Positions 9,719-63,208 of a DNA stretch of 63,208 bases are shown here, piece by piece. Where the stretch lies: positions 1 to 63,208 of the IMG/VR virus record IMGVR_UViG_3300016457_001358, one strand, 5' to 3'. Each line of letters starts with the position of its first letter. Position 1 is the stretch's first letter. The position numbers were made by a program, and so were the translations under genes. Source of the DNA: a virus. The notes beneath the pieces are model-generated. The model made no database searches. It saw only the letters and a program-made list of their open reading frames with translations, and was not told the origin of the DNA.

Positions 9719-9725
9719 AAAGAAA

Positions 9726-10164: not shown

Positions 10165-10184
10165 GATGCTGAAGGCGAGAGAAA

Positions 10185-11607: not shown

Positions 11608-13449
11608 TTAATGCGTATGACCAGCATCTACCGGGCTATGCTGATGACTTGCGGCATTGCCTTCGAGGGCTGGCGATACTTCCGACTCTGATGGGCTATG
11701 CTGATGACTTGCGGCATTGCCTTCGAGATTTGGCGCATTCGGAGTAGCAGACACATTAGCACTAGCATCTTCAGCTGTATTTGTATCAATATCGTGTGTA
11801 TGTCCCGTACTCCACCATGTTTTCAGATGATAGTTAAAGTCAGCGGTTCCTGTTCCGGTATATCTACATCTTAAATACAAAGTTTCTCCTTCGCTAGGTT
11901 TCATTGAAGATATTTCTTTCCAAATTGCTGTTGTACCCATATTGTCAAGGAATATCTTTCTAGTACCCAGTCCATAAGAGTAACTTTCAAGCTTGTATTC
12001 AAAATATTCAGGAGATGGGCATGAAGTAATAACAATCTCTACTTCGTGTACCAGTATTGTACTTCTTCTTTTTTGGTTTTCAGAATAACCGGATGTATCA
12101 ACAGTATAGCTCGCGATATCTGTCCAGTCACTTCCTAAACCTGAATATGATCCATCTGATGTGTGGTTAGTGTCAGTCATCCATGAATCTCCTTTTATAT
12201 TTGTCGTCGTTGCTGATACTGTATGGCTATGGGTAGATGTATAGGATGAATGATCGTGACTTGCGGCATTGCCTTCGAGGGCTGGTGATACTTCCGACTC
12301 TGATGGGCTATGCTGATGACTTGCGGCATTGCCTTCGAGGGCTGGCGCTATATCTGATTCCGATACATCGGCAGTCCCGGTGTCGGTTCCGTGTTTGTAG
12401 CTTCCCAAATCCTGTAACTGCTCCTCGTTTCTCGCCAACTTGTCCAAGAATGTCGTTACTCTGTTCGATAGCTCCAGCTCCAGCCTGTTGGGTTTGGTCG
12501 CGTTCAAAATCACCCTCTTTTTGACTATTTTATATTCACCCGACATGCCGCTTCTCGTATCGTTGACCGTCACATCGTCGCCGACCGAAAATGTATAATC
12601 CGTTTCGACCGGCAATATGGAGATTCTGTAAAAAGGCTTTGGCGTGCCGTCCGGATATGTTCCCTCGTATCCGCTGTAAGTATCCAAAATCTGGTCGGCG
12701 AGCCTTTGGGCCGATGTCACATCGGCGATCGTCCTGTCTATGAATATCGCTTCCTTGGTGATCCCGTAATAACTTTGCGAATCGGTATTCTCTCTCCAGC
12801 CGGAATCGATTTGCTGCGTTCCGTCGCCCATGCCCAGCACCTTCACCTTGTTTATCAATGCTTCTCTATCCACCATTTTTTTGATATCCCAGCAGTTTGC
12901 AAGGCTGCCTCCCGTGTTGAATGTGGCTTGAGACGTGTCGTTTCCCACTCTTTCGGCTATATTGAACTGGTCGTTGTCGCTGGCGTCTTGATTCACTTTC
13001 CATTCGTAACCTATTTGCCTCGCCAGCTTAGCCAGTCCCAGCAACCTGGATTCATGGACGCTGAAATCGACATTCCCGTAGTTCGTGTTCGTTCCGACAT
13101 TGATTACTCCGCTGCACAGATCGGATACTATGGTGCTCGTTGCCGTGGCGGACCACGATCCATCGTAGGTTTTTTCGAGCAATTTGACGCTCATATCGTA
13201 GCCGTAGCATTTGACGATGCCGGTATCGCTGTACTGGGGCTTCTCCAGCCTGCCTTTGAACACGGTCGTCGAATTGAGCTGAAATTTAACTATATTGCCC
13301 GCTTGAACATTTGGATCGTCGTGATCTATGTCAAACAGTTCCAGCTCAAATGTGAAAGGTTCGTTGAGCTTCTCCGTGAACTCGGCTTTCAAGTAGTTAT
13401 CCGAATAGTCAACGCCGTTTATCAACAATGTCCATGTCAATTTGATCAC
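11608..13449 (-). CDS. tail/baseplate-associated protein with internal peptide repeats
   Basis: 613 aa downstream of tape-measure-like gene; four copies of PALEGNAASHQHSP from 60-nt tandem repeats. Confidence 0.5.
   Translation of the reverse strand: MIKLTWTLLINGVDYSDNYLKAEFTEKLNEPFTFELELFDIDHDDPNVQAGNIVKFQLNSTTVFKGRLEKPQYSDTGIVKCYGYDMSVKLLEKTYDGSWSATATSTIVSDLCSGVINVGTNTNYGNVDFSVHESRLLGLAKLARQIGYEWKVNQDASDNDQFNIAERVGNDTSQATFNTGGSLANCWDIKKMVDREALINKVKVLGMGDGTQQIDSGWRENTDSQSYYGITKEAIFIDRTIADVTSAQRLADQILDTYSGYEGTYPDGTPKPFYRISILPVETDYTFSVGDDVTVNDTRSGMSGEYKIVKKRVILNATKPNRLELELSNRVTTFLDKLARNEEQLQDLGSYKHGTDTGTADVSESDIAPALEGNAASHQHSPSESEVSPALEGNAASHDHSSYTSTHSHTVSATTTNIKGDSWMTDTNHTSDGSYSGLGSDWTDIASYTVDTSGYSENQKRRSTILVHEVEIVITSCPSPEYFEYKLESYSYGLGTRKIFLDNMGTTAIWKEISSMKPSEGETLYLRCRYTGTGTADFNYHLKTWWSTGHTHDIDTNTAEDASANVSATPNAPNLEGNAASHQHSPSESEVSPALEGNAASHQHSPVDAGHTH
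11633..11727. repeat. 60-nt tandem coding repeat, two units
   Basis: gggctatgctgatgacttgcggcattgccttcgag repeated. Confidence 0.8.
12250..12350. repeat. second pair of the same ~60-nt coding repeat
   Basis: gacttgcggcattgccttcgagggctgg occurs twice. Confidence 0.8.
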
Positions 13450-27267: not shown

Positions 27268-30200
27268 TCAAATGAGTTTGAGAATCTTTTGATACCGATA
27301 CACGGTGTTTTTTGACAGTCCAGTCGCCAGACTGATGCTTCTTCTGGATTCGTTTTTTGCCGTGAGCTCGATTATCTGCTTCAATATTTTGCCCGTAACC
27401 TTCACGGGCTGACCGGCTTTTTTGATTTTGTCGAAAAGCATGATCCACGTTTGAGGCCCGATGTGCGCGATGTGGAATGAATACTCGCCCGTCATATCGA
27501 TCAGCTTCTTTGGCGGTTTAACCAGCACTGGAGCTCCCTCTTTTTTCGCCATTTGCAAAGGCTTCAGGTTAACATCGCCCTTGTCCGATCTGAACTCTAT
27601 TCTTATTTTGTGATCGGTCACTTCGTGGATGGTGTACACGCCTCTGGAAATTATGATAAAGACCCCGGGATAGCGCGTTTTAGCCGTGCCGATCTTATGC
27701 GTGACCCCGTCGAAGAACAGCCAGTCCACCGGCTCCGTCAGCTTGATCGTTCCTCTGACATGCGAACTGTCGGCATAGTTCGATTCTTCCACCGTTGCGG
27801 GAGTGAACAGCGTTATCCCTTCGAGGCAACCCTTGAGTTTGCCTTTTTTGAACAATGCCAGCGCGTCATCGTAGGTCAAGACTTTGCAAGTTACTTCGTC
27901 GGGAACAAACAACCTGACATCCCGGTGCGTTTTTCGCCCTATGCTGTGCAGGTGGATGACATAAGGCATCCACAGATTGTTGTTCATGATTTTTTTGAAA
28001 TTTCTCTGCATTCTCTCCGGGAAGTCCCTGATTATTTTGACTTCTTTGGCTTCCTCCGGCTCTTTTTTCAACTCTTCGTGCTTCACCGCAACGCCGATCG
28101 CGGTGACTATGTCCTCGAGTTCGTCTATTGTCGAAGTTTCCTTTTTTTCCGTAATATGATTGACCCTTGGCTTGTGAATCGAGTACCACCTGCCTTTGTC
28201 CGATTCGTGCCTCCAAACCTCTTCGACCAAAATGCTCAGTATGGCTCCCTCTTCGTATTTTTCGGATGTGTTGAACGTTTTGCCGAGAACCAGCACCTTT
28301 TTTCCTTTGAAATCGGTTATCTTGTCGGGGTTGATGCCGGCGTCCTTTTCCCTCAGATAGACTCCCACGAGATAGTTGTAAAGATTCTTTTCCTTGGGAA
28401 TTCGGTCCAGTATCACCACATCTATATCGACGAGGTTGCGAAATTTCAGCCACGACTTATGCTCTCCGAAATGATACTTTGCCGACAGGTCTTTGATCAC
28501 GGCCCCTTCCGAGTAAGGCAGATTCTTTGCCCACTCTATCGCCTTTCTGACTTCATCGACCCCTTTCGCAAACTTTCTCTGAATGAGCAAGGTTCTGGGA
28601 CCGAAGTTCAATTTATTCAAATATTTGATGCGCTCGTGTAAGCTCAGGTTCGTGATATCATTATCGAAGTAAACGATGTCCCATATAAATATCTTAATGT
28701 TTTTGTCGTCCACCTTTTTTCCGCTTTCGATCGCTCCTATGAATTTCATCAATGTGTTTCTTCCGAGCTGCTTGCCGTCGTCGAAAGGAACTATCTCGCC
28801 GTCCACTATGAAATTAGCATCGCTCATCTTCGATATCGCATCGCACAGAGTCGGAAACGCAAACGTCAGCTCTTTTTTTTGCTCTGAAAATATCTTCACT
28901 TCGCTTCCCTTTTTGTGGCAGCACACGTGAAATCCGTTTATCTTTTTCTCTACGGAGTATTCGATATCATTCCTGATCTTTGCCATTATGTCATCGATTT
29001 TGTAATAAGCCGAGCCCAGCGGTTTTTGAGGAAGATAAGGCTCGAACAGCCGAACCGAATCTCCGAGAATTATTTCGTTCATTTCCACTATTTTGGTCGG
29101 TTTGATGCGCTCCAGTTTCAAATCGTAAAGCGGAATGAATGAGTCGTGGCTGCCCTCCGCATCTCCCCATATCATGTGAATCTTCGGTATCAACTCGGCG
29201 TAGCCGTTTTCTTCGAGCATTTTCAGCAGCCTGACTTCGATCGCCCTTCTTATATACGAGTTCTTCTCCGCTCGCAATCTGATTTGCAAGTCCACATCGT
29301 TCGGTATGTGACCCTTTGGTCTTTTCACGGTAGAACCGACCAGAGAAATGCAGTCCTTGACTATTTTGAAGTCCTTGAATGCGTCCAGAAAATCGAGATT
29401 CGTCAAATCAACTTTCTTGTGTATCATCTCCTTTTCTCCGGTTATTCGCTTATACAGATCCAATGACCATTTCTTGTAGGTTTCCGGGTGAAACTCAATG
29501 CCCCTTTTCTTGAGCTCCTCGTATATCATTTTGGCGAGATTGACGAGAGTTTCTTCCGAATACGGTGTTTTCTCTCCTCTTTTCAGCTTGCTGTAATGGG
29601 CGCACACCAGTCTGTAATCGTCCTTCAAAACATCCGTGCTCAACTTTTTGGGATCATACGTCTCCGGGTTCTGTATCAAATTCGCTTCGACGTTCTGGAA
29701 CTCAAATTTTTCCAACACGCTTTCGATTTTTTCGGCGAGCGAATCCCACCAGCTTTCCCAACCTTTCTCGCCGTACCACACTTTGCCCGCAACGACCACT
29801 CTTGGTCTGTTCTCGGCGCCGATGTCGCATTTGGAATACAAGCCGTCCTGCTTGTCCAGCTCTTTGCTGATATCTTCGGCTTTGTCATCGTCGGCCGGGT
29901 TCGCCATCCTGAACACTATGAAGGCGACCCTCTCGGGCGACTTTCCCTCGTCGCTCGCCCTTATCTCTATCTCCTTGATCCCGTTCAGTTGCTCGAGCCA
30001 CTCGTCCTTTATATGAACATCGATATCGTTGAAACCGTTCCACGACTTCTTCGGACCGTCCGTGCGGCCGCTCAACCAGCCTCCCGGCGGCAATTTGTTG
30101 TATACCGCGTAGTATGCGAATGTGGGCGAATTCATTTTCGGCGTGTAATCCGCATTCAAAAATTCGATATCCTTCACGAATGTTTGCGTGCCTTTTTTAA

Positions 30201-32106
30201 ACTTCCACCTTCGCGGAGCTGAAAACTTCGTGATCCATTCAAACGAGAATTCGTAAAAATGCTTTTTGTCTTTCCATCCCCATTTTTCAATCTCGCTCTC
30301 GCTGATCAAATGAAGATTCGCCCTCTCGTCGAACTGCTTTTTCGTGATTTTGTTTGGCGCATGAAGCCTGATAACGCCGTAAACAAACTCTTTGTCCACG
30401 ACATAAAGAGCTTTGTCCACCATCTCGGGATAAGGTCTCGTCTTTATTATCAGCGATTTTTTTCCGCCCCATAACCATCTGGCGTGAGGCGACGGCAAAT
30501 AAATTCCCTCTCTCTGCTCGAACAGTTGCAACTCCACCAACTTCTGACTCGCGTCAATTGAATCGGGATCGTAGTTGCTGAATACCAGCTCGTATTCGGG
30601 CTTGTCGTTCTTGGCGAAGGTTCTTTTGTGGAGCATCTTTTTCATGTAAAAATCTTTGAACAAATCCCTTATCCAGTCGGCATCATTCAATGTTAAAAGA
30701 AACTTTCCCTTCACCGATTTCAAAATGTCGCGGAGCTCCCGCAGGTTTTCTTTCGTGAATTTCAAACCGTTTTTTTCGAACTTCCACTCGTCGGGATAAG
30801 GGGGATCGACAAAGAAAAACGTCTGCGAGGAGTCGAACCTCTTTATGATCGATTTGTAGTCCTGGTTGTATATCTTCACGCCCTTCAATCTGTTCCTCAG
30901 CGCGTCCCATCTGTTCAAAATCCCGAGCAACTTTTCTTTGTTGAACCAGCCGTATGTTTCTCTGTCTATTCCGTAAGAGTATCTCGTGAGATACAAAAAT
31001 TTGGCGAATCTCTCGGCATCGTTCTTCGGCTTCAATTCTTTGATCCTGAAAAAAGTCGGTTTGTCGTTTTTCCATGCGTATTGCCTGAGCCTTTGGGCAT
31101 CTTCGGCGCTCGTGCTTTGTATGAATTTGTACGCGAACGCGATCTCTGGATCGAGATCGTTTAAAACCTCGATTTCGCTCGGGCTCTTTCTCCAGAACAC
31201 CGCAGCTCCGCCGGCGAACGGCTCGCAGTAAATTTTGTGCTGTGGCATCATCTTGATCAATTTTTCCGCGACCCTGCTCTTGCCGCCCGGGCTGCCGAAC
31301 GCCTGTTGCATGAGTTCATGATCTTTGTATAGCACCATGCCGTCGTAAGACAAAATGATTTCGCTGCTCGATTTCCCCTTTATCTGGTTCCAGTATCGCC
31401 GAATCTGTTTTTCGGCCTCGTGATGGTCGGGATACGAGCGCCCCGCTTGTATCAGCACGAATTTGTCTGGATTGTATGCTTGAGCGTATGCCAGCGAATT
31501 GGCGACATTCAGATGCCCTCTCAACATCTTGCCCGTGGCAACTATCTCGCCTCCCCTTTCTTCCAAATTGTAAATGGCCGCATCCAGAATCATTATGTCC
31601 GCGTTTTTGAGATAGCGCTCGTTTTCTGCGGGGACCGATTCCATGTCCTCGGCATAAACCAAGCCGTCGATCCTGTACCCGTAGCAGGGAAATTTCTTGC
31701 CGGTCGGAAACGCCTCCGCGTGAATCACCCTGAAAGGAATTATCTTGAATCCCATTATTTCGTTCGTCTGGCGAGGAGTTATCGGTTTGAGAACGATGTT
31801 TTTGAACTTCTTTTGTAGCCTTTCGTTCGCCAGCACATCCGGGGGAGCGTAAACGTTTATGGGCTCGGTCAGCCACTTGTCCAGATCGGGCAGACCGCCA
31901 ATGCAGTCGGCGTGAGCGTGCGTCAGCAGGCAGAAGTCTATTTTCTCGATGCCGTTCTTCTCCGCTTGCTCCCTGAAGTGCTTGGTGACATCGATTATGA
32001 AGGATTTTCCGCCCTTTTCTACATAGATGGAGCTATTGGTGCGCCTGTTTTTTCCTCTTCCTTCAACTAACTGAGTCGGACCCGAGCCCAGCACAACTAT
32101 TTTCAT
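27268..32106 (-). CDS. giant multi-domain (polyvalent-type) virion-module protein: MBL-fold hydrolase + Dam-like N6-adenine MTase + ligase-like nucleotidyltransferase
   Basis: LLTHAHADCIGG; GGKSRVAEKL..YCEPFAGGAAVF..FFFVDPPYPDEW; EKKINGFHV..FIVDGEIV..SWLKFRN; likely start MKIVVLGSG at 32106. Confidence 0.75.
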   Translation of the reverse strand: MKIVVLGSGPTQLVEGRGKNRRTNSSIYVEKGGKSFIIDVTKHFREQAEKNGIEKIDFCLLTHAHADCIGGLPDLDKWLTEPINVYAPPDVLANERLQKKFKNIVLKPITPRQTNEIMGFKIIPFRVIHAEAFPTGKKFPCYGYRIDGLVYAEDMESVPAENERYLKNADIMILDAAIYNLEERGGEIVATGKMLRGHLNVANSLAYAQAYNPDKFVLIQAGRSYPDHHEAEKQIRRYWNQIKGKSSSEIILSYDGMVLYKDHELMQQAFGSPGGKSRVAEKLIKMMPQHKIYCEPFAGGAAVFWRKSPSEIEVLNDLDPEIAFAYKFIQSTSAEDAQRLRQYAWKNDKPTFFRIKELKPKNDAERFAKFLYLTRYSYGIDRETYGWFNKEKLLGILNRWDALRNRLKGVKIYNQDYKSIIKRFDSSQTFFFVDPPYPDEWKFEKNGLKFTKENLRELRDILKSVKGKFLLTLNDADWIRDLFKDFYMKKMLHKRTFAKNDKPEYELVFSNYDPDSIDASQKLVELQLFEQREGIYLPSPHARWLWGGKKSLIIKTRPYPEMVDKALYVVDKEFVYGVIRLHAPNKITKKQFDERANLHLISESEIEKWGWKDKKHFYEFSFEWITKFSAPRRWKFKKGTQTFVKDIEFLNADYTPKMNSPTFAYYAVYNKLPPGGWLSGRTDGPKKSWNGFNDIDVHIKDEWLEQLNGIKEIEIRASDEGKSPERVAFIVFRMANPADDDKAEDISKELDKQDGLYSKCDIGAENRPRVVVAGKVWYGEKGWESWWDSLAEKIESVLEKFEFQNVEANLIQNPETYDPKKLSTDVLKDDYRLVCAHYSKLKRGEKTPYSEETLVNLAKMIYEELKKRGIEFHPETYKKWSLDLYKRITGEKEMIHKKVDLTNLDFLDAFKDFKIVKDCISLVGSTVKRPKGHIPNDVDLQIRLRAEKNSYIRRAIEVRLLKMLEENGYAELIPKIHMIWGDAEGSHDSFIPLYDLKLERIKPTKIVEMNEIILGDSVRLFEPYLPQKPLGSAYYKIDDIMAKIRNDIEYSVEKKINGFHVCCHKKGSEVKIFSEQKKELTFAFPTLCDAISKMSDANFIVDGEIVPFDDGKQLGRNTLMKFIGAIESGKKVDDKNIKIFIWDIVYFDNDITNLSLHERIKYLNKLNFGPRTLLIQRKFAKGVDEVRKAIEWAKNLPYSEGAVIKDLSAKYHFGEHKSWLKFRNLVDIDVVILDRIPKEKNLYNYLVGVYLREKDAGINPDKITDFKGKKVLVLGKTFNTSEKYEEGAILSILVEEVWRHESDKGRWYSIHKPRVNHITEKKETSTIDELEDIVTAIGVAVKHEELKKEPEEAKEVKIIRDFPERMQRNFKKIMNNNLWMPYVIHLHSIGRKTHRDVRLFVPDEVTCKVLTYDDALALFKKGKLKGCLEGITLFTPATVEESNYADSSHVRGTIKLTEPVDWLFFDGVTHKIGTAKTRYPGVFIIISRGVYTIHEVTDHKIRIEFRSDKGDVNLKPLQMAKKEGAPVLVKPPKKLIDMTGEYSFHIAHIGPQTWIMLFDKIKKAGQPVKVTGKILKQIIELTAKNESRRSISLATGLSKNTVYRYQKILKLI

Positions 32107-33380
32107 TCGCGATCTCCATGAATTTTGGGCATGCCCTCTATCTCCCTGATGTAATCCTCGGTTTCCGGATTGGGAGTTATCAAACCATGCTTCGCGCATC
32201 TCGCTATTCTCTCCATCTTCGAATCGAGCTCCTCCAGAGAAATCTCCCCCCACTGTATTTTCACGGGCGGAACGCGGTTAACCTGGGAAATCCTTCTTAT
32301 CACTTTGGATTCGAGAACTCCCACCGTTCTCTCTATTATGTCCTTGAGCCTTATCTTGAAAATGTACTCCTGCCTGTTGAGAGTGGATCGGTTGGTCGTT
32401 TCTCCGAGCCCCGTCGCGAACGCTTTGGGTATGCCCATGCCGGTGATCATGACATCCATCCAGTAGTCGAGAAAGTTTCTTATTTTGGCGGACTGCCTCG
32501 ATTCCAGCAGACCGATCTTCAACCAGCTGGGATGGGAGAACGCGGTCAGGCTGTTGATGTCCTTCAGCTGCTCCGCAACCTTGGTTATCTGCTCCGGCGT
32601 GGCATCGTGAGTTTCGTCGCCCACCGACGCGTCGATCAGCGGAAAGCCGACCCTGTAGCTGGCGTTGGCGAAACCGTCCTCGACCGCCAGCTGCCTGAGA
32701 TACGACTTGTAAATCGGCTCGATCAATCCGATTCCGTAGAAGCCGTCCCCGACCTCGTACAGCTTGAAATGGGCGACCCTTTCCGGTGGCAGAAATATCT
32801 TGTTGCCCTGCAAAGAAACCTGGGGCGGGGGAGCGATTTTGTTGTTCACCCTTTCCATCGACGGAACCGACTGCGTGTATCCGACCGGGTTCCCGTAATC
32901 ATCCAGAGCGATTCTGTCCGAGCTGTCCTTCGCGTAGTCGAACCTTTTCGGATCTATGATGTCCAGATCGACTATCGCGCTCTTTTTCAAGCTCCCCTTC
33001 TCGATCGTGCCGTAGATTATCTCCCAAGGGCAGAACCCGTAGATGAACTGGTACTGAAATGTTTTTGTGAGAATGTTCCGCCAGTTCGTTTCTCCGCCCG
33101 TGTATCCGACATTGTCGAAAAACTCCGAAAAGTATTCGACGGCCTCTTTGCTGCCCTTCAAAGAGTACCCGGCGCTCATGATGATCTGGGTCAGCACGTT
33201 GATCGAGTTGTGTATTATTCCGTTTTTCGTGTAGCATTGCTCGAGCTCCTTCAGCTGGCCGGGAACCATCCTTTCCAATTCCGGCGTCGCTTTCTTGGCG
33301 ACGGGGACCGGCGAAATCTTCGAAACGGCCGAAGCCAGATTGAAGGACCTTCTGCCTCCGAACAAATCCGACAGCAGCAT
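32103..33380 (-). CDS. putative portal protein
   Basis: 425 aa immediately downstream of terminase large subunit; position and size only. Confidence 0.5.
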   Translation of the reverse strand: MLLSDLFGGRRSFNLASAVSKISPVPVAKKATPELERMVPGQLKELEQCYTKNGIIHNSINVLTQIIMSAGYSLKGSKEAVEYFSEFFDNVGYTGGETNWRNILTKTFQYQFIYGFCPWEIIYGTIEKGSLKKSAIVDLDIIDPKRFDYAKDSSDRIALDDYGNPVGYTQSVPSMERVNNKIAPPPQVSLQGNKIFLPPERVAHFKLYEVGDGFYGIGLIEPIYKSYLRQLAVEDGFANASYRVGFPLIDASVGDETHDATPEQITKVAEQLKDINSLTAFSHPSWLKIGLLESRQSAKIRNFLDYWMDVMITGMGIPKAFATGLGETTNRSTLNRQEYIFKIRLKDIIERTVGVLESKVIRRISQVNRVPPVKIQWGEISLEELDSKMERIARCAKHGLITPNPETEDYIREIEGMPKIHGDRE

Positions 33381-35429: not shown

Positions 35430-36174
35430 ACTATAAAAATACGCTCAAAAATATAAAAACCTTGCGATGACACACCAGCGCCCAAAATGTCTTACTCTAC
35501 AGATACCGCTAAGGCAGTTCATTAAGATTACGGTAAGGAAGAACGCTTCGGTGCGGATTCGACATTCTCCCATCCCGCATGTCAGAGATATCCATTTTAC
35601 TTATGTTATTTGAATTCATAAGGAAGCGCTCAATTTCCAACAGACGCACAAAGTTGGATGTGCGAGGCCGATACCGGCAATTTTATCTCATTCACCGCCG
35701 CTTACCATCGATTCACAAAGCGGGCGGCAGTTTTGTAAAATCCTTGCGAGCTCAATCTCATTTTTTGCCCGGTCCCGTTGCAACAGCTCATCATCAGCAT
35801 CTCGCCAGTACAGCAAACAAATATTCGCGCGGGGATAAATGCGGTCGCTTTGGTAGCAAATGCGATATTTATGCAATATTGTTTTACAAACAGCAAATAT
35901 GCTATTCAGAACTAACGGATGCAATATCTATTTTGTAGGATATATGTTTTCGACTGTAAAATTTTGGGGAAAATAGCGAGGGCTGGCACTATACCCATTT
36001 ATCAAAAAATTTCTCGTGAATCCAAAATTCCGATATACAAATGCTTATATTACTATTGTGGCATATAAAACCAGATATAGATTATATTATAACAATACAG
36101 ACATATAAAATAGAAATTGCGACATAAAAATAAGAAAATGAAAAATAAAGAATATAAAAAAGAAAATAAAAAAA

Positions 36175-36894
36175 TCAAATATACATTTTTGCTAATGCTT
36201 GTATTTTCTGCATATCAATATGCTTTATTGTTGTTTGTGTTCTGTTTCTGTTTGTTTGTGTTTTCTGTTGTTTCTGATAAACAAATTTGTATATGTAAAA
36301 TATCTTTTGTCTCTGTAATTTCGCTATCTTCTCTCTCATCCATGCTAATAATATTTTTCTTCTTCTCTCATATTCTCTGTATTCTGTTATGCTCATATTC
36401 ATTTCTTTTGCTTCTGTGTGTTCTGTTATTCTTCTATGCTTCATTATTATGTTTCTAATATCAAAGAGATAATTGCTATTCAATTCATCGATCAATTTTT
36501 TTATTTCTCTGTTTATTCTGTTTATTCTTGATATTCTTGATTTGTAATTGTATATTGTTCTTATGTCATTATTTTTCTTCATTTCTTTTATTGTCGCATT
36601 TATTTGCTTGATTCTATGTAATGCTAATGTATAAATTCTGTCTGATGTTGTTGTTTTTTTTGCGATTTTTTGGCATTCTCGTCTTTCTTTCAATAATTGA
36701 TAATATTTGTTGTTTTGCTCTAAATCTCTTAATAATGTTGCTCTTATGTCTATGATTTCTTTATATTTTTCTGTTATCTCTATTATTCTTTTTGCTATTA
36801 ATAAATTTCTGTAATCTCTTGACATTCCATATCTGTTTTTTGCTGTTTCTTTTATTTCTCCAATTAACTCCTGATATGTTGCCATATTCATCAA
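36175..36894 (-). CDS. hypothetical K/R/I/N-rich protein in AT-rich island
   Basis: 239 aa; purine-rich coding strand; composition unlike the rest of the replicon. Confidence 0.3.
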   Translation of the reverse strand: MMNMATYQELIGEIKETAKNRYGMSRDYRNLLIAKRIIEITEKYKEIIDIRATLLRDLEQNNKYYQLLKERRECQKIAKKTTTSDRIYTLALHRIKQINATIKEMKKNNDIRTIYNYKSRISRINRINREIKKLIDELNSNYLFDIRNIIMKHRRITEHTEAKEMNMSITEYREYERRRKILLAWMREKIAKLQRQKIFYIYKFVYQKQQKTQTNRNRTQTTIKHIDMQKIQALAKMYI

Positions 36895-37140
36895 ATATTA
36901 TTATGCATTATGTATATAAAAAGATTATTGCCATTCTTTTATCATTATATAATATAAGCATCCAAAAATCTTAATTTGTTTCTCCAAAATATAAATTCTA
37001 ATCGCCAAATTGTAAAATATGAGATCAAATCGCTATTTATGATGGACCTGATTATAATCGCTATGATGCAACAAATATATTGATGAATATAATTGATGTA
37101 TGCTATTTTTACAATATATATAGAAACAATAAAAAGAGTG

Positions 37141-37350
37141 ATGCAAATGGACATAAACAAATTAATAGAACAAGCAAAGAATACAAGCACAAAAAGAGTC
37201 TCAAAAGATAAATATTTGTGCTTGTATTGGAATAAAGAGAAAGAACCCGAAAACTACAGAGTTGTGAAAGAATTCATGAAAAAACATGATTTGACACCCA
37301 CAGAATTGAAATTATTCCTTATTCAGATAATAAAGAGTAAAAACAATTGA
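37141..37350 (+). CDS. hypothetical small protein
   Basis: ATG at 37141 in frame 37093..37350. Confidence 0.3.
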   Translation: MQMDINKLIEQAKNTSTKRVSKDKYLCLYWNKEKEPENYRVVKEFMKKHDLTPTELKLFLIQIIKSKNN

Positions 37351-37359
37351 TTGCGGGTT

Positions 37360-37450
37360 CTTTCTTTTTGATTTGTTTGTTTTTGCTTTTTTTTATATTC
37401 TTTTATTTTTACTGTTTTAAAAGCGTTTAAAGGTTTTTAAGGGTGCTTGT
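37360..37450. promoter_or_regulatory. AT-rich upstream repeat, copy 1 of 3
   Basis: ttttaaaagcgtttaaaggtttttaagggt recurs at ~37735 and ~38050, each before a small ORF. Confidence 0.4.
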
Positions 37451-37684
37451 ATGAAGGAGAAAATTGAATGGAAAGAGTTTGAAATCGCGGGTAGCAAGTT
37501 CTATGCGGCAGTTGTGGGTATGGCGGTCATCGGAAACGAAACTCAAGTCATCGTTAGCGATGAAATTCATGCCATCAAGGGGGTCGCTTTTATACACGCC
37601 GACGGCAGCTTCACTTGGTTGAACCCGCCAGACAACTTCAAAGCCGATGTTGAAAAGAAGTTGCTCGAGTTGTATCCGCGATAG
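37451..37684 (+). CDS. hypothetical small protein
   Basis: 77 aa ORF behind repeat copy 1. Confidence 0.35.
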   Translation: MKEKIEWKEFEIAGSKFYAAVVGMAVIGNETQVIVSDEIHAIKGVAFIHADGSFTWLNPPDNFKADVEKKLLELYPR

Positions 37685-37799
37685 GATCTCTTTTTAATTT
37701 ATTTGTTTTTATTTATATTTTTTTATATTCATCATTTTAAAAGCGGTTTTTAAATGGGTCGTATATCGTTCATTTTAAATCTTTAAAAGTGTTGAAAAA

Positions 37800-37922
37800 T
37801 GACAAAAGAAACAAAATTCTTGGTAAGAGTGAATACAGGAGATACAAAGGTAGTATCTGAAAAAGAGATTGAAGAACTCGCTAAAAGCATTGAGTATAGT
37901 GTACTGGATGTCTATTTTTAGA
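37800..37922 (+). CDS. hypothetical small protein
   Basis: ~40 aa ORF behind repeat copy 2. Confidence 0.25.
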
Positions 37923-37952
37923 GTGGTTTAAGGATCGGACCCTTACCACTCT
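37918..37952. repeat. conserved hairpin after cassette ORF
   Basis: agagtggtttaaggatcggacccttaccactct; near-identical copy at 38268..38300. Confidence 0.5.
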
Positions 37953-38087
37953 CTGGGTGGGTCATACGGGTGGGGAGTTGATTACTAGAAGCGGTCAATT
38001 CCGCTTTAATTTTATTTTTATATTTTTATTTATATTTTTATATTTCTATTTTTAAACGATTTTAAATGGGTCACATAGGTGAATTAA

Positions 38088-54464: not shown

Positions 54465-54491
54465 TTAAAAAAAGAAATTATGGACATCAAT

Positions 54492-54563
54492 AGGCGGTTG
54501 GTGAAATCAGGCATCATAATAGGCTCATAACCTATTGTTTCGGTTCAAATCCGAAACCGCCTA
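54492..54563 (+). tRNA. tRNA with anticodon CAU (Met or Ile2)
   Basis: Hand-folded cloverleaf: 7-bp acceptor aggcggt/accgcct, D-loop with GG, anticodon loop cuCAUaa, T-arm ttcgg-ttcaaat-ccgaa; no encoded CCA. Confidence 0.55.
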
Positions 54564-54573
54564 TGGTAATGGA

Positions 54574-55484: not shown

Positions 55485-55676
55485 ATGAAGAAAATTAAAT
55501 CCGGACTCGAAAAACATTTCAAAATTGAGACTTGGGTCGAGAAAAATCAATATGGCTATCTGATAAAGCAAAAACATGAATCAGAAGATTACCCCAATCT
55601 TTTCGTGGAAGAAACAGTCATTCTAACTCCGAGAGTCATTAAAAAACTAAAAGTGAAAGAAAATGATAGGAGATGA
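55485..55676 (+). CDS. hypothetical protein
   Basis: 63 aa ORF preceded by ggtgaaagaaaatg. Confidence 0.35.
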   Translation: MKKIKSGLEKHFKIETWVEKNQYGYLIKQKHESEDYPNLFVEETVILTPRVIKKLKVKENDRR

Positions 55677-55740
55677 CCCTTTGATAAGAGATTGGATAGA
55701 GAAGATAAACGAAACCACAGGAAATTAAAGGCGATGAAGA

Positions 55741-55956
55741 ATGGAATTCAGCTTAAACCTTGCTTGTATTTTAGAAAAGATGGGAAACGAATTTGATGAG
55801 ACATTAGAAGATTTGGGAGTAGGGTGGAGAAAAGTTGCAGAGATGATAGTTAAAGGAGAGATGGAGTTAAGAATAAAATCTACTCCGATTGGAGATTATC
55901 TTGTGATAGAAGTTCCAGATAAGTTTATTAATGCTCAAAGTGAAAGAAATGAATGA
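55741..55956 (+). CDS. hypothetical protein
   Basis: 71 aa ORF. Confidence 0.3.
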   Translation: MEFSLNLACILEKMGNEFDETLEDLGVGWRKVAEMIVKGEMELRIKSTPIGDYLVIEVPDKFINAQSERNE

Positions 55957-56206
55957 ACCAAAGCCTCTTAGTTTGGATAAAGAGAGTCCATATCCAGAGG
56001 ATATATTTCCAGAAATAACAAAAGAGGAATGGGAGAGAATAGATAAACTGCTGAAAAAGGAGATGGGCTTTTCACTCGACAGAGTTGCTGGAAACATAAA
56101 CAGAAAGATGTGGAATAATATGAAGGAATGGTTTACGGAACGCATCAAATCCGCAGTCCAGGGATTGAAACAGGATATCGAAAAGAGGAAAGGAGATAAC
56201 TGCTGA
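55931..56206 (+). CDS. hypothetical protein
   Basis: 91 aa ORF. Confidence 0.3.
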   Translation: MLKVKEMNEPKPLSLDKESPYPEDIFPEITKEEWERIDKLLKKEMGFSLDRVAGNINRKMWNNMKEWFTERIKSAVQGLKQDIEKRKGDNC

Positions 56207-56290
56207 TGAAGGCAAAAGATACACATACGATTATTGTATTCATTTAATCAAAAAATGGTTTCCTGATGCTCTTGGAGACGGTGAAAAGCC

Positions 56291-56476
56291 ATGAATTTAG
56301 ATAAAATTGTCGAAATCTGTTTTCTCATAGGGTTTCTCAGTCTTCTGTTATTCGTTGTCGGGGGCATCGCTTTCGTTCCAGACGCTGACGGTCCTTTCAT
56401 TCTGCTTATTCATTTTTGTAACAGCAGTCGTTATAGTGCTGATGATTTTCATCACCGCTACGAATTGAGATGCTGA
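56291..56476 (+). CDS. small membrane protein, diverged paralogue of 9988..10164 (3' end in a different frame; possibly decayed)
   Basis: N-terminal MNLDKIVEICFLIGFLSLLLFVVGG nearly identical to first copy. Confidence 0.3.
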   Translation: MNLDKIVEICFLIGFLSLLLFVVGGIAFVPDADGPFILLIHFCNSSRYSADDFHHRYELRC

Positions 56477-56488
56477 AGGTGAAAAAAA

Positions 56489-56857
56489 ATGGAATGTAAA
56501 GCAAAATTCGATTCAAAAGAAATAAAGAACCAATTGGTGCTGGCTGCTGGAACATATAACGGAGAGCTATATTTTCCACCCGAAACAATCAAAAAAACAG
56601 TTTCACTTACAAAACGAATACCCGTTTATTTGAATTCCACACAAGACAACAAACATTTAGTAGGTGCGGCAACAAATTTCAGATTAAAAAATAACAAAAT
56701 GTATTGTGATGTAAAAATTGAACCTGAATATTTTGAATCATTTGCCTTAGATTTAAAAAACGGAGAATCTAACGGCGCAACAATAAAAAGGATTGAAATT
56801 GCAGGTTTAAGCATAATACCGAACAAAAAAGTAATTAAGAAAGAGCGAGCGAAATGA
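56489..56857 (+). CDS. hypothetical protein
   Basis: 122 aa ORF. Confidence 0.4.
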   Translation: MECKAKFDSKEIKNQLVLAAGTYNGELYFPPETIKKTVSLTKRIPVYLNSTQDNKHLVGAATNFRLKNNKMYCDVKIEPEYFESFALDLKNGESNGATIKRIEIAGLSIIPNKKVIKKERAK

Positions 56858-59273: not shown

Positions 59274-59506
59274 TCGCGGTGCCTTATCGAAGGGAATGGT
59301 CGAACAACGAGCAAAAAATATTGGATGCGCTACGCGGGGATGCGTATGGAAAAACATTCACGGAAATTGCTTCAAAAACGAATATTAAAACAATTGCTTT
59401 GAAATATGCACTCGAATTGCTGATCAAACAAGGCAAAGTGGAATGTCGCATGATTTCCGCAACAATCAAATTATACAGAATAAAGCAGAAACAGCGCCCG
59501 CGCTAA
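59270..59506 (+). CDS. winged-helix DNA-binding protein
   Basis: GKTFTEIASKTNIKTIALKYALELLIKQGKVE. Confidence 0.4.
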   Translation: MIAVPYRREWSNNEQKILDALRGDAYGKTFTEIASKTNIKTIALKYALELLIKQGKVECRMISATIKLYRIKQKQRPR

Positions 59507-60195
59507 AAGGTTTCTCTGAGTATCTCGACCTCCCCTTCCTTTTCCTTTTCTTCGATGAGCTTTTGGAACGCTTCAGTTTTTGGTTTGATAAACATAAATC
59601 CGTATCTTTTTTCCATATCGCTGACTATTTTAATCGCGTTCATGTTGATCTGCAGCACCTTTTGCTCTTTGATTTCGGCCGGTTGTTGGTCCCTGAACAA
59701 CAATCTTGAATAGAATTCCATATTTTTCAGCATCGTATTGTTGAAAGATTCCAGAATGGCAACGCTTTTTTCAAGGGACCCTTTTATTGCGTCTATGTCT
59801 CTGATGTCTATTTTGTTTTTGTCGAGTCTTTGATAGTAGTTCAAAGTGTCGTTTTCAAGCACCTCTATCCATTTGAATACCTTGTCTTTGTAAGCGTTCA
59901 GCCTTTTGTTTATTTCCCGGAGGCTGTCATGCAGTATCATTATTTCGTTTTTCATTTTTTCAACTATCATCTTTGTCGTTTGGTCTTTGTCCACCAGCAA
60001 ATCCTTGTTATCGAAACTCATATTGTATTTTGCTATTTCGTTCTTGATCACATTGTTGATCGTTGCATAATTGGCTTTGATGCCAAACTCCTTGCTGATC
60101 GTTTCGGCAATTTTGCTGATCGGATACTGCTGAATCTTAAGTTGCAGCATTCTTTTTACCACTTCGGGTTGTCTCAATTCAAAATTTACAGCCAT
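59503..60195 (-). CDS. hypothetical protein
   Basis: 230 aa ORF convergent with + block. Confidence 0.4.
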   Translation of the reverse strand: MAVNFELRQPEVVKRMLQLKIQQYPISKIAETISKEFGIKANYATINNVIKNEIAKYNMSFDNKDLLVDKDQTTKMIVEKMKNEIMILHDSLREINKRLNAYKDKVFKWIEVLENDTLNYYQRLDKNKIDIRDIDAIKGSLEKSVAILESFNNTMLKNMEFYSRLLFRDQQPAEIKEQKVLQINMNAIKIVSDMEKRYGFMFIKPKTEAFQKLIEEKEKEGEVEILRETF

Positions 60196-60356
60196 ATGCC
60201 ATCATCTTCGTAAATCTTTTTCAAACCGAGTTTGGCATCGATCTCTTCCAGCTCGGTTCTTATTTTTCTAACTTCGCTGAGTTTGCTTTTCAAGGATTTA
60301 TCCAAATAGGCTCGTCTCGCAATGAGATGAGATGTTTCATCGTTTTGCATCCATAA

Positions 60357-60767
60357 TCACCCCACTATCTCGAATATTTCGCCTTTTTTTGAATGAGGCT
60401 TTATCAGTCCGCTCTTGATGAACTCTTTGAACCATTTCTTAACGGTTCTCTTGTCGTTGCCCCTAACGCTTTCTATGGCTTTTTTAATGTGGAAGGAGTG
60501 CGACTGCATCTCTATGCCGTATTCGCTCTTAAGGTATTCCTTCACAGATCTGAACACCATGTTGACTTTGAGGTTGGGATTTCTCTTAAAAACATGCTCG
60601 CTTTGTGCATGTTGTGCTATCCAGCTCTTGATGGCCGATTCGACCTCGAAGGACAGAAAAGAGTGCTTATTGCCGTATTTTTTAGTTACTAAATCCGTCA
60701 ATCGTCGATAAGTTTCGTCTTCGAGGCGGAAATGTCTGACTTTCCTTGCCATGAGGAGCTTCACCAT
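60357..60767 (-). CDS. ribbon-helix-helix-like regulator
   Basis: N-terminal KVRHFRLEDETYRRLTDLV; start abuts iteron region. Confidence 0.4.
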   Translation of the reverse strand: MVKLLMARKVRHFRLEDETYRRLTDLVTKKYGNKHSFLSFEVESAIKSWIAQHAQSEHVFKRNPNLKVNMVFRSVKEYLKSEYGIEMQSHSFHIKKAIESVRGNDKRTVKKWFKEFIKSGLIKPHSKKGEIFEIVG

Positions 60768-60785
60768 GCAAAAGACATTAGCATC

Positions 60786-60818
60786 TGTGTATCAAATGTG
60801 TATCAATCGTGTATCAAG
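60786..60818. repeat. three direct GTGTATCAA repeats at 10-11 nt spacing (iteron/operator-like)
   Basis: tgtgtatcaa atgtgtatcaa tcgtgtatcaag. Confidence 0.7.
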
Positions 60819-60866
60819 TTTTGCATATATACATATTTATTGTAAAAATATTTAAATTTATCTTCA

Positions 60867-60893
60867 TCTACTCCAACATTTAATTGGAGTAGA
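60867..60893. promoter_or_regulatory. perfect 10-nt inverted repeat with 7-nt spacer
   Basis: tctactccaa-catttaa-ttggagtaga. Confidence 0.7.
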
Positions 60894-60932
60894 GAGGCAT
60901 TTTTTAATAGCAACGTGTGTCAATCCTCGCCG

Positions 60933-60950
60933 CGCACAAAGTGCACAAAG
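60933..60950. repeat. tandem direct repeat gcacaaagt x2
   Basis: gcacaaagtgcacaaagt followed by BRE/TATA-like gaaaactatttaaat. Confidence 0.6.
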
Positions 60951-61011
60951 TCGACACGAATTTGACGGAAAACTATTTAAATACCAAAAACAATATATAT
61001 ATTTGATAGAA

Positions 61012-61182
61012 ATGACTGTTACGAAATCGAAAAAAGGCAGATGGATAGTGCTTGTGAGCGATGCGTCGTCCGCGTCAGCCGTTGCACAGGATTTGGCCGA
61101 CGCATTGAACGATGAAGATGTGCCTCTTTCGCAATTTGTTTTGTTCGATGTCACAAACAAGATCGCGGTTTTTAAAAGATAG
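61012..61182 (+). CDS. hypothetical small protein
   Basis: 56 aa hand-delimited ORF; gaaaactatttaaat upstream (also at ~6047). Confidence 0.3.
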   Translation: MTVTKSKKGRWIVLVSDASSASAVAQDLADALNDEDVPLSQFVLFDVTNKIAVFKR

Positions 61183-61191
61183 GTAGTTTGA

Positions 61192-61608
61192 ATGGCACTC
61201 ACTCGCTTTGTCGTGGACATGAGGACATATCAAATAGACGAGTCGTTGTCGTCAACCCCCGAAACATTCAGGGAAACCCAGATAAAGCACAAAATCTCAT
61301 CCTTGTCGGACGGCTCCCACACGGAAACAATCACATTGTCAAAGGGAACATACCGTGCGGTAACCGAGGTGGGAGTGTCGGTTGGCTCGAACGGAAATGA
61401 GTGGGGCAGCGACGGATACATCGAAATCCACAGAACGGACGACACGCCAGACAGCTCTTCCAAAATTGCGGAGGGCTACCTGAATGTTTCGAGCGTTGTC
61501 CTGATAGACGAGATTCTGTTCTCCAAAAAGAAATTGAAGATAGTCATAGACCACAATGCGGGGACGGCGAAGGACGTGCATTTGAACATCAGATACAAAT
61601 ATTTTTAA
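61192..61608 (+). CDS. hypothetical protein
   Basis: 138 aa ORF. Confidence 0.4.
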   Translation: MALTRFVVDMRTYQIDESLSSTPETFRETQIKHKISSLSDGSHTETITLSKGTYRAVTEVGVSVGSNGNEWGSDGYIEIHRTDDTPDSSSKIAEGYLNVSSVVLIDEILFSKKKLKIVIDHNAGTAKDVHLNIRYKYF

Positions 61609-61623
61609 TCTGCGTGAGACGCA

Positions 61624-63078
61624 ATGAAGGTCTTCTTGGAGGCAACGGCGTTCGTTTTGATATTGCTTGCATGCTGTGTTGTTTTTGCCGATGCCGTGTC
61701 CCAGCACAGCGGAGAGCACTTTAACATGAACCTGACAATATCCACGAGGCCGCCCCTCACGGCTCCGGCGAACTTCACCCACACGAACAAGAACGCCTCG
61801 ACGAACTTCACGTGGAACGCGTCGAGCCACCACATCAGCGATGCCGGTTTCTACGGATACTTCAAACTGCAATTGGACAACGACACCGACTTCAGCTCCC
61901 CGGTATTTAACATAACCATTAATGGGACGGATTCTTGCTCGAACGGCGTCTGTAACTACACATACGAGCCAGAGTTGCCAGACAGCTGGTATTACTGGAG
62001 AGTCGCCCATCTCGAGAGATACAACTGCAGCGACGTGAACTGCTCCCGCGTGGCGGACTACAGAGGGGAGCCGGAGTTCGTGGAGGGAGACTTCAGCTAC
62101 TGGGGGACGGGGGTGAACAACGATACCGACTGGTCGACGCGGACGCTGGTAATCGACACGGTGAACCCCATACCATACTGCTATCTGCCGTCCTACATGC
62201 ACCCGCACACGTGCGACGAGAACATAACGGAATTCGACAGGAGATGGTATCTGAACCTCTCGTGCAACGATTACAATCTGTATGGAATGTTCGTGAACAT
62301 AACGAGTTCTAACGGAACGCAGAAGTTCACCTACTCGAAGGAGGGCATCTCCGGGAACGAGTACAACTACGTACACGGCGTCAACACGGGAAAGTGGCCG
62401 GAGGGCGAGTATTTCCTGAAACTGGTCTGCAGCGACGACCACACGGCGATGAAAATCGCGGACATACCCTACAGGACGTGGGGAAACAAGGTCATATTCA
62501 ACATAACGCCGAAGCACGGAAAAAGAGACGTCTCATTCTCGATAACGCCGATGCTCCCCGTGAGCAAGGAGGACGTGACGGTGAGCAGGAACATATATCC
62601 GAACATCGTGAAGAAAAAATACAAGTATGAGATAGGATACAACTTCAGCGAGGTCGTCGACCCGAAAGAAAAACTGCACGAGTATAAATTCATCATCCTG
62701 TCGGACTACAAAATCCGCTACAGGGAAAAGTCGAAATACAAAGGGCACTTCGTCATCGGCAGGCATTGCTACGACGAGGGCTCGAACTGCAAGTGGCTGG
62801 ACTTCCACAAGGAGGCGGAAGGCGGAGCCATGATAAAGGTTCAGAAGCTCGACAAAAAGTCGGGATACGCATACGAAGTGACCCTAATCACGAACAGGAC
62901 ATACATAGACCCCGAAATCGGCGGTTTGAACTACGCGACAAAATACTGGAAGGTGAGAATCAAGCACAAGCAAACGCCCCTCGGCTCGAAAAAACTGCTT
63001 GTTCTGGCGGGAGCGATTACAACCGGGATAGGGGTTTATGCTTATTACAGGCGAAGGAGGAGACGCAGGCGGCGATGA
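61624..63078 (+). CDS. membrane-anchored, sequon-rich glycoprotein with poly-Arg tail
   Basis: Signal peptide MKVFLEATAFVLILLACCVVFADA; at least 14 N-x-S/T sequons; C-terminal TM helix then RRRRRRRRR. Confidence 0.55.
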   Translation: MKVFLEATAFVLILLACCVVFADAVSQHSGEHFNMNLTISTRPPLTAPANFTHTNKNASTNFTWNASSHHISDAGFYGYFKLQLDNDTDFSSPVFNITINGTDSCSNGVCNYTYEPELPDSWYYWRVAHLERYNCSDVNCSRVADYRGEPEFVEGDFSYWGTGVNNDTDWSTRTLVIDTVNPIPYCYLPSYMHPHTCDENITEFDRRWYLNLSCNDYNLYGMFVNITSSNGTQKFTYSKEGISGNEYNYVHGVNTGKWPEGEYFLKLVCSDDHTAMKIADIPYRTWGNKVIFNITPKHGKRDVSFSITPMLPVSKEDVTVSRNIYPNIVKKKYKYEIGYNFSEVVDPKEKLHEYKFIILSDYKIRYREKSKYKGHFVIGRHCYDEGSNCKWLDFHKEAEGGAMIKVQKLDKKSGYAYEVTLITNRTYIDPEIGGLNYATKYWKVRIKHKQTPLGSKKLLVLAGAITTGIGVYAYYRRRRRRRRR

Positions 63079-63081
63079 AGC

Positions 63082-63208
63082 ATGAAAAAACTGAAACCTT
63101 TCGGCGAAATCGAAATCAAGAGGATAACTGTTCCAGACGATTTATTAAGACAGGACTTGGGAGACATAAACTCGCTGGTGGAATCCATAAAACGGTGCGG
63201 CCTCGACA
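63082..63208 (+). CDS. 5' portion of the ParB-like gene (continues at position 1)
   Basis: ATG at 63082 followed by MKKLKPFGEIEIKRITVPDDLLRQDLGDINSLVESIKRCGLD in frame with 40..936. Confidence 0.6.
   Translation, partial: MKKLKPFGEIEIKRITVPDDLLRQDLGDINSLVESIKRCGLD
63118..63208. repeat. terminal redundancy: identical to 1..91 (circular closure)
   Basis: 91/91 nt identity with the window start. Confidence 0.9.

Follow-up and report, generated by a model that had tools for sequence, protein, structure and literature searches.

To our knowledge, what is understood of transcription control in archaeal viruses comes from a few factors of Sulfolobus viruses, and we know of nothing on such control in the uncultured tailed viruses of deep-sea metagenomes. 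SvtR of SIRV1, like F55 of SSV1, reportedly represses its own promoter. F55 is a ribbon-helix-helix (RHH) repressor that acts on its own and on early promoters through 11-nt tandem repeats overlapping the transcription start site and the B recognition element (BRE) (PMC5569661). Its consensus site is ATAGATAGAGT and its binding is concentration-dependent (PMC5569661). In this study, we describe a comparable locus in the window, that is, the whole stretch of 63,208 nucleotides formed by the IMG/VR virus record IMGVR_UViG_3300016457_001358. Judged from its sequence, the locus resembles that of F55 in pairing an RHH protein of an archaeal-type virus with three tandem repeats of 11-bp period at the protein's own gene. 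We propose that the 244 bp at 60768-61011 are a divergent promoter/operator, the main job of which is control of a 131-amino acid (aa) regulator by itself, and we put the probability of this reading at roughly 0.62.

A sequence-only reading of the region had listed three direct repeats at one-helical-turn spacing (60786..60818) beside a divergent gene labelled RHH-like, a 10-nt inverted repeat with a 7-nt spacer (60867..60893), a tandem pair of gcacaaagt (60933..60950), a BRE/TATA-like sequence recurring near 6047, and a ParB gene about 2 kb downstream. All of these are present. The direct repeats lie at 60787-60817, within 1 nt of the position given, and the tandem pair at 60934-60951, with a 1-nt offset; the inverted repeat is perfect, the BRE/TATA-like sequence recurs at 6047-6061 and a ParB-like gene starts at 63082. 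The predicted fold supports the RHH label, for a gene that lies on the minus strand and whose product has a winged helix in addition. The same reading had taken the elements as one unit, a candidate operator, replication origin or partition site. Comparison with relatives instead splits them into three classes, with the iterons lineage-specific, the palindrome clade-specific and the TTTGTG array family-wide. The operator proposal holds up for the iterons, on the strength of their TATA-to-start placement, their conservation and their replacement in one relative, but the origin and partition proposals are unsupported.

The loci compared here are all metagenome contigs, from deep-sea and other sources, because blastn and tblastn searches found no resembling record among GenBank phage and archaeal-virus records, and no close relative was found in GTDB species genomes or in IMG/VR scans made with the regulator protein, the iteron pattern and two family alignments. 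The close relatives are L001 (86% protein identity), L003 and L005 (about 80%) and L002 (73%). The more distant family loci, L006, L008-L013 and L014, share 30-38% identity, and L009 and L010 are closely related to each other.

Results

The regulator has two predicted DNA-binding domains

The regulator gene (60357..60752, minus strand) encodes 131 aa, with RHH at about residues 3-51, a linker, and a C-terminal winged helix at about 61-129. Its open reading frame (ORF) was first listed from an ATG at 60767. The true start is probably the ATG at 60752, because a Shine-Dalgarno-like GGTGA (60761..60765, minus strand) lies 8 nt upstream of it, GGTGA-like sequences precede the corresponding ATG in L001 and L003 (L002 has GGGAAG only), L001 is without the upstream ATG, and the homologues are called at 131 aa.

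A full HMMER search returned 203 representative clusters at E-values up to 1e-3, nearly all of 130-145 aa and matching over their full length. No curated family among the Pfam, NCBIfam and PHROG models matched the regulator. Sub-threshold matches were confined to RHH_6 (6 of 56 members) and RHH_1 (3 of 56), with E-values of 0.017-0.039 at best, and the window protein itself had not even a sub-threshold match to either. When the family profile was compared with PDB sequences, RHH proteins were four of the top five, at marginal E-values. A first structure model built from 4 sequences was unusable, with a predicted local distance difference test score (pLDDT) of 50.8, and was superseded by an AlphaFold model built on a 34-sequence alignment (pLDDT 85.5). 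The latter has an extended N-terminus, helices at 12-26 and 32-51, a low-confidence linker at 52-55, and a C-terminal domain in the order helix-strand-helix-helix-wing. As modelled, the protein has the RHH fold of the Arc/MetJ/CopG superfamily, and its second domain is predicted to be of a DNA-binding type, the winged helix.

Alignment with CopG by hhalign is weak (probability 8%) but in register: H7 and R9 correspond to the base-contacting T6 and T8, and F8 and L10 fall in the core. The putative recognition helix of the winged helix carries the near-invariant motif R97-G98-x-D100-x-R102-T103-x-x-K106-W107 (RTxxKW), with R97, G98, D100, R102, T103, K106 and W107 invariant or nearly so across members that are only about 30% identical.

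Two genes downstream of the regulator, at 60186-60350 (minus strand, 54 aa) and 59503-60195 (minus strand, a 230-aa coiled coil), appear to be co-transcribed with it. The N-terminus of the 230-aa protein looks helix-turn-helix-like by eye. Neither protein matched a family or an NTPase, and both genes are conserved in L003 and L005 and not across the family.

Three iterons follow a conserved leftward TATA box

The three iterons (60787..60817, minus strand) have a period of 11 and read TTGATACAC on the gene strand and GTGTATCAA on the plus strand. We propose them as the operator of the RHH domain. GTGTATCAA occurs exactly three times in the window, always in tandem, at 60787, 60798 and 60809. 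Nowhere else in the genome does a 9-mer stand in triple tandem at a period of 9-12, and such a triple was found in none of 100 simulated first-order Markov genomes. A degenerate fourth iteron, GTGTGTCAA at 60915, was discarded; it is not conserved in L003, L005 or L002 and is probably due to chance.

The leftward promoter lies in an AT-rich stretch (60819..60866) that reaches 88% AT in a 50-nt window. Its TATA box with flanks, ATAAATTTAAATATTTTT on the gene strand (60845..60862, minus strand), is identical at 18/18 nt in the window, L003 and L002. L006 and L014 have a similar TATA core, AWATATTTTTACA, and share the TTTTTACA tail with the TATA box of the window. The distance from TATA box to start in archaea is usually about 26 nt. 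Applied to the conserved TATA box, this distance would put the leftward start near 60826, so that the iterons would span about +9 to +39. They begin about 30-32 nt downstream of the TATA block and precede the start codon. If the start site is where predicted, the order of TATA box, iterons and gene would be compatible with an autoregulated promoter of the BRE/TATA type.

Iterons and the RHH strand differ together in one relative

TTGATACAC is present in three copies in the window and in L001 and in four copies in L003 and L005, where the fourth reads TCGATACAC. The relatives sharing TTGATACAC, with their 3-4 copies, have the same or nearly the same strand in the RHH domain (KVRHFRLED / RVRHFRIED). 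In L002, the iteron position is occupied instead by three copies of TTAATATCT with a period of 10. The G:C pairs of TTGATACAC are lost in this repeat. Despite the exchange, L002 keeps the TATA box, the palindrome and a TTTGTG-type array. The strand of its RHH protein reads VRHILIG where the others have VRHFRLE, with the substitutions R9L and E11G. On the weak register with CopG, R9L would fall at a base-reading position and E11G just past the last one. Taken together, the iteron swap and the strand changes are suggestive of an operator/repressor pair shifting its specificity. The replaced iterons of L002 are flanked by a 15-nt direct repeat, ACAAACAAAATTAAT (895-945 of that locus), and there are hints that the new array arose by local duplication.

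Other lineages of the family have repeats of their own. They carry 8-mers in at least three copies within the 300 nt upstream of the gene (ATAGTACT, TTAGTACT, ATGGTACT, CAAAGTTT) and short repeats near the promoter (ATAGTACTAT, TTAGTACTA, ATGGTACTAT, and CAAAGTTT or ACTAGT). ACTAGT is present in 2-3 copies in L014, and the lineage repeats of L006 and L014 stand directly after the TATA box. A tRNA-like sequence, GGGGTGGCCCAGCCGG ... GGTTCAAATCCGGCCCCCGTAACCA, with a long internal insert lies upstream of the family gene in L009 (1800-2010). ARAGORN made no call on it; it may be an intron-containing archaeal tRNA or the remnant of an attachment site.

A family-wide motif lies upstream of the gene and, inverted, inside it

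The upstream array (60934..60951, minus strand) reads CTTTGTGC-A-CTTTGTGC on the gene strand, which is GCACAAAGT x2 on the other. TTTGTG-N2-6-TTTGTG occurs once in the window, at this site, against 0.07 expected. Every locus examined has a TTTGTG(C/T) array on the sense strand, 170-270 nt before the family gene, reduced to a single copy in L008; a tandem TTTGTG pair stands at the homologous place in 8 of 10 distinct relative loci. The arrays of distant loci have a period of 9-10, for example GTTTGTGCAAGTTTGTGCACG in L012 and L013 and GTTTGTGTGTCTTTGTGTGTTTGTGCGCC in L009. TTTGTG was counted 23 times in the -300 to -100 windows (2,010 nt) and 26 times in the other 95,954 nt, a 42-fold enrichment that comes from about six independent lineages only and from a -300 to -100 window picked after the data had been viewed. 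GCACAAAGT x2 is the most widely conserved cis element of the region.

Its inverted partner lies within the regulator gene (60601..60617, plus strand), where CTTTGTGCATGTTGTGC reads GCA CAA CAT GCA CAA AG on the gene strand, at codons 46-51. The 17-nt inverted repeat formed by 60601-60617 and 60934-60950 is 88% complementary, and the intragenic copy falls in the region coding for the end of RHH helix B and the linker. In 11 of the 11 loci compared, CACAA(A/C) is found on the sense strand of the gene between nt 137 and 196, as two copies 9-10 nt apart in eight loci and as one copy in three; L014 has CACAAG x2 inside the gene. The motif appears in three reading frames, so that the encoded peptides differ (AQHAQS, AHTNSHK, QQSTNN, ITQIHA, FHTNSHK), and only 2 of the 20 CACAA(A/C) hexamers in these genes fall outside the 70-nt stretch. 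Among 148 family proteins, an underlying CACAAA would fit 86% of linkers, compared with 41% once each linker is shuffled, and the density of CACAAA-compatible peptides is 11-fold higher in the linker than outside it, an effect from which a recurrent protein motif (H-T-K/N or A-Q-x type) is not fully separable. Synonymous change over the intragenic array is low among the four close relatives (1 of 5 codons varies, versus 61% overall), which with a binomial p of about 0.08 is only suggestive. A constraint on the intragenic motif at the DNA level seems likely from these comparisons.

The inverted TTTGTG arrays are 320-450 bp apart and bracket the promoter, the lineage repeats, the AT-rich stretch and the RHH-coding part of the gene. 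Since the recognition helix of the winged helix is near-invariant and the TTTGTG arrays are the only invariant DNA motif, we regard the arrays as putative sites of the winged helix. Two other readings were considered for these arrays. An invertible promoter is unlikely, given that its repeats would be both short and degenerate, that inversion would cut the gene in two and that no recombinase is seen nearby. A small RNA that would be driven by the palindromic TATA (60974-60983) and start at the TTTGTG array was also rejected; L002 keeps the array and has no TATA upstream.

A palindrome lies upstream of the leftward TATA box

The perfect palindrome TCTACTCCAA-N7-TTGGAGTAGA (60867..60893) is unique in the window, and its midpoint is some 27 bp before the leftward TATA box. 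Its core, ACTCCAA-N7-YTGGAGT, and its loop sequence are kept in L003, L005 and L002 with no compensatory changes, and the arm changes of L002 and L003 break pairs. Because core and loop are conserved without compensation, the comparison favours a protein site over an RNA hairpin, and the palindrome is a candidate site of a dimeric factor. A T6 run (60900..60905, plus strand) stands 7 nt after it, and an A/T run of 5-6 is kept there in relatives.

A second, predicted promoter faces the rightward unit

The predicted rightward promoter (60963..61002, plus strand) has the BRE/TATA sequence GAAAACTATTTAAATA at 60968-60983. Transcription from it would start near 61005 and give a near-leaderless mRNA for the ORF at 61012. 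GAAAACTATTTAAAT is found at 60968-60982 and again at 6047-6061, and the surrounding blocks (60963-61002 and 6042-6081) are 83% identical over 40 nt; both precede plus-strand genes. As a genome-wide motif this promoter-like 15-mer was rejected, since 7 matches with up to 3 mismatches were found against 5.9 expected and only the copies at 6047 and 60968 are related. The rightward promoter is conserved with the 56-aa ORF in L003 and L005 and is absent in L002. In that relative, the RHH cassette follows a homologue of the zinc-ribbon gene of the window (480-620 of L002). In the window, this zinc-ribbon gene (5900-6038) precedes the promoter copy at 6042. The arrangement suggests module shuffling at the duplicated 40-nt promoter block, at two module boundaries. 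From the L002 context, the module from TTTGTG array to gene therefore appears to travel with the RHH gene.

The rightward unit is made up, in order, of a 56-aa ORF, a 138-aa ORF, a 484-aa predicted membrane glycoprotein and the ParB-like gene. The 56-aa ORF (61012..61182, plus strand), which is divergent to the regulator and the first rightward gene, has no family match and is kept in L003 and L005. The 484-aa protein (61624-63078, plus strand) has numerous N-x-S/T sequons. A hydrophobic segment lies at its N-terminus and a membrane anchor at its C-terminus, the latter ending in RRRRRRRR, and the protein is likely a glycosylated membrane or receptor-binding protein. The ParB-like gene (323 aa, plus strand) runs from 63082 to 63208 and then over the junction to 936. 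Its Pfam matches to HTH_ParB and ParB_N are weak, its PHROG ParB-like matches reach E 5e-9, and the full ORF has an arginine patch, GRRRLEA, and a CxxC motif at its C-terminus.

The assembly is circular and points to an archaeal virus

Positions 1-91 are identical to 63118-63208. This exact terminal duplication of 91 nt is that of a circular (or terminally redundant) genome, and the circular assembly has 63,117 bp. The window contains the virus-type genes for a large terminase subunit, a Mu-like portal and a tail protein, and encodes PCNA, RNase HII, RNase H and a DNA methylase. BRE/TATA-type promoter-like sequences together with PCNA point to a tailed virus of an archaeon.

Several further features of the genome were noted. 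A 1,661-aa ORF in the structural arm (27268-32253, minus strand) is an unusual fusion of an MBL-fold hydrolase, a D12 N6-adenine methyltransferase and an ATP-dependent DNA ligase. One tRNA-Met (CAT anticodon) is encoded at 54491-54564 (plus strand). Two distant clusters of small genes (9228-10187 and 55650-56491) share several segments of 63-131 nt with 83-94% identity, which resemble paralogous small-ORF cassettes including start regions with GGTGA-type ribosome-binding sites. Direct repeats of 99 nt, 93% identical and accompanied by a partial copy, lie at 11638-12408 (minus strand) within the gene of a 613-aa tail protein (Prophage_tail match).

Discussion

We propose the following mechanism for the locus. 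The TATA-binding protein and transcription factor B of the host would use the TATA box at about 60849-60857 and direct transcription leftward from about 60826. Dimers of the regulator would occupy the three TTGATACAC iterons, reaching with the RHH beta-ribbon into one major groove after another; the 11-bp period would align the iterons along a single helical face, from about +9 to +39. Cooperative binding of these dimers would block recruitment of RNA polymerase or promoter escape, resulting in negative autoregulation. The winged helix, through RTxxKW, may bind the TTTGTG(C) arrays, both about 125 bp upstream (60934-60951) and, inverted, in the gene (60601-60617), and occupancy of the arrays could tie the complex into a loop or a wrapped structure. 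Because 17 bp separate the upstream array from the rightward BRE/TATA (60968-60983), the two promoters may be coupled, and array occupancy could also set expression of the rightward unit with its 56-aa, 138-aa, membrane glycoprotein and ParB-like genes. The palindrome upstream of the leftward TATA box might serve a dimeric factor.

Several points weigh against this autoregulatory reading. The covariation of iterons and strand is a single swap event, that is, one independent change (n=1). At +9 to +39, the iterons would lie farther downstream than most archaeal operators, counted from a predicted start. In L009-L011, the lineage repeats lie 90-170 nt upstream of the gene, away from the start site, so their role there would not be the same simple roadblock. 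The palindrome is without an assigned binder. The assignment of the arrays to the winged helix relies on the co-occurrence of two conserved features, no covariation having been found between them, and the arrays could bind a host factor or the ParB-like protein instead.

A broader view goes beyond autorepression. The gene for the RHH/winged-helix protein and its surroundings may be a self-contained cassette found across many uncultured archaeal-type viruses, in which the protein builds a wrapped or looped complex, for instance as a compact replication origin that brings its own specificity module or as a switch between lysis and a carrier state. Each type of DNA-reading domain, conserved or variable, would then have its counterpart in a conserved or variable class of sites. 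We consider this a speculative extension, with the odds well against it.

A replication origin is, in our estimate, somewhat less probable still. The inverted TTTGTG boxes would here bracket an AT-rich unwinding stretch together with the iterons, and the regulator would be an origin binder that recruits host factors. Iteron plasmids with an autoregulated Rep, and archaeal oriC with inverted origin recognition boxes around a DNA unwinding element beside orc1, provide precedents. In lambda, the iterons of the origin lie in the linker-coding part of the initiator gene O. The present locus recalls the lambda origin in the motif in its linker-coding region and archaeal origins in its inverted boxes, which lie 320-450 bp apart around the AT-rich stretch in every family locus examined; the occurrence of the intragenic motif in three frames argues for a function at the DNA level. 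The winged-helix fold also matches, generically, those of Cdc6, ORC and MCM. Among the ORFs scanned, which were not all ORFs, we found PCNA, ligase and RNase H and no polymerase, primase or helicase domain, so the virus may need a recruiter of host machinery; a Pfam scan of 10 further small ORFs of the replication arm gave no match.

Several points, however, weigh against an origin here. The iterons adjoin the only strongly AT-rich 50-nt stretch outside 36-38 kb, but the larger AT-rich, repeat-dense region at 35.9-38.2 kb is the better candidate. That region (35900-38200) has about 29-35% GC, carries T/A-rich tandem and inverted repeats, and spans the switch from leftward structural to rightward enzyme genes. 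Of the 79 50-nt windows at least as AT-rich as 60819-60866, 73 lie in it, and the remaining few lie at 60.82-60.87 kb. It is the best candidate in the genome for an origin or a major divergent promoter. The sequence-only reading had named skew as a check on an origin at the present locus, and we found neither a GC- nor an AT-skew extreme there: cumulative GC skew has its minimum at 37,006 and its detrended maximum at 10,561, with a flat plateau across 59-63 kb. Both extremes coincide with switches in gene orientation; because the skew tracks gene orientation, it counts for little in either direction. At 9 bp and 3-4 copies, the iterons are short and few; they would lie inside the 5' untranslated region, and they are not the element that the family conserves. 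The protein is small, with no ATPase or helicase-loading domain and no recognisable initiator domain, and the neighbouring genes vary by lineage.

A partition site appears highly unlikely. In such a system, the RHH protein would coat the iterons in the manner of ParR, ParG or omega and, with the ParB-like protein, segregate a plasmid-like genome in a carrier state. The genome does encode a ParB-like protein with a GRRR arginine patch, and in L009 and L010 a ParB-like gene is found no more than 2 kb from the family gene, which may be synteny. However, the circularised genome has no deviant Walker A motif KGGxxGK[ST] in any of six frames, and the ORFs scanned gave no actin- or tubulin-like partner. 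The 54-aa and 230-aa genes downstream of the regulator are not kept across the family. The 3-4 iterons adjoin the RHH gene and not the ParB-like gene, which is 2 kb off and belongs to the opposite transcription unit, and the motifs reappear neither close to the ParB-like gene nor at other places in the genome. The gene set is that of a tailed virus, with terminase and portal, and the ORFs scanned include no recognised integrase or plasmid-maintenance gene.

An RNA element is at least as improbable. The palindrome and the T6 run might form a terminator or insulator hairpin between the divergent promoters, or be part of a small non-coding RNA. As RNA, the palindrome folds stably (-16.8 kcal/mol, z = -5.9), and on the plus strand of the window, L003 and L002 a T5-6 run follows it by 7-10 nt. 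Archaeal transcription is terminated by oligo-T tracts. No plus-strand gene ends upstream of the hairpin, however, and a transcript from the nearest plus-strand TATA-like sequence would start inside it. The lack of compensatory substitutions described above also counts against a folded RNA. A simple terminator scan does not call the hairpin, and Rfam 15 gave no match at 60600-61200, the best scores being 15-22 bits against gathering thresholds of 40-60. Chance repeats in an AT-rich spacer can be set aside: two-copy short repeats are common in AT-rich DNA, and the 60915 iteron and several two-copy families are probably of this sort, but the simulations produced no triple exact 9-mer, the main elements are conserved in relatives while the surrounding spacer diverges, and TTTGTG is enriched family-wide.

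Autoregulation at a divergent promoter thus remains the reading we prefer, and the locus offers a directly testable pair of protein and DNA. It includes a natural specificity swap, in which TTGATACAC goes with VRHFRLE and TTAATATCT with VRHILIG. The family to which the protein belongs has about 200 clusters, is uncharacterised and lacks a Pfam, NCBIfam or PHROG model, and the family gene is accompanied by a DNA motif that is conserved upstream and, inverted, inside the gene. If this motif marks a loop or an origin, it would provide a compact cis/trans module for annotating archaeal viruses and possibly for vectors. If the protein is an autorepressor only, the locus is an ordinary but clean example.

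How the locus relates to known systems can be summarised as follows. F55 is a single RHH domain of 55 aa with sites at several promoters, whereas the window protein adds a conserved winged helix and its iteron is present at one place in the genome. The likeness to F55 is not one of sequence, as no match between the two was found, nor does any GenBank phage or archaeal-virus record match the regulator. The archaeal RHH autorepressors SvtR of SIRV1 and ORF56 of pRN1 are single-domain proteins with imperfect inverted-repeat sites, in contrast to the two domains and tandem iterons described here. Omega of pSM19035, Arc, Mnt, CopG, ParR and ParG are bacterial and plasmid RHH repressors that bind direct repeats cooperatively, but none is known to have a C-terminal winged helix or a further set of sites shared across its family. 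For ParR, ParG and omega, the operator also serves as the centromere and acts together with an NTPase, whereas no ParA-type motif was found here. A second copy of a motif within coding sequence, as with the intragenic TTTGTG array, is known from the loops among O1, O2 and O3 of LacI and from lambda O with its origin. This is an analogy only, and the intragenic motif of the window differs from the lambda case in being of the family-wide type and not the lineage-specific one. The pairing of iterons with an RHH protein is familiar in kind; the two-domain protein, with variable and invariant classes of sites and a mirror site inside the gene, makes a new form of it.

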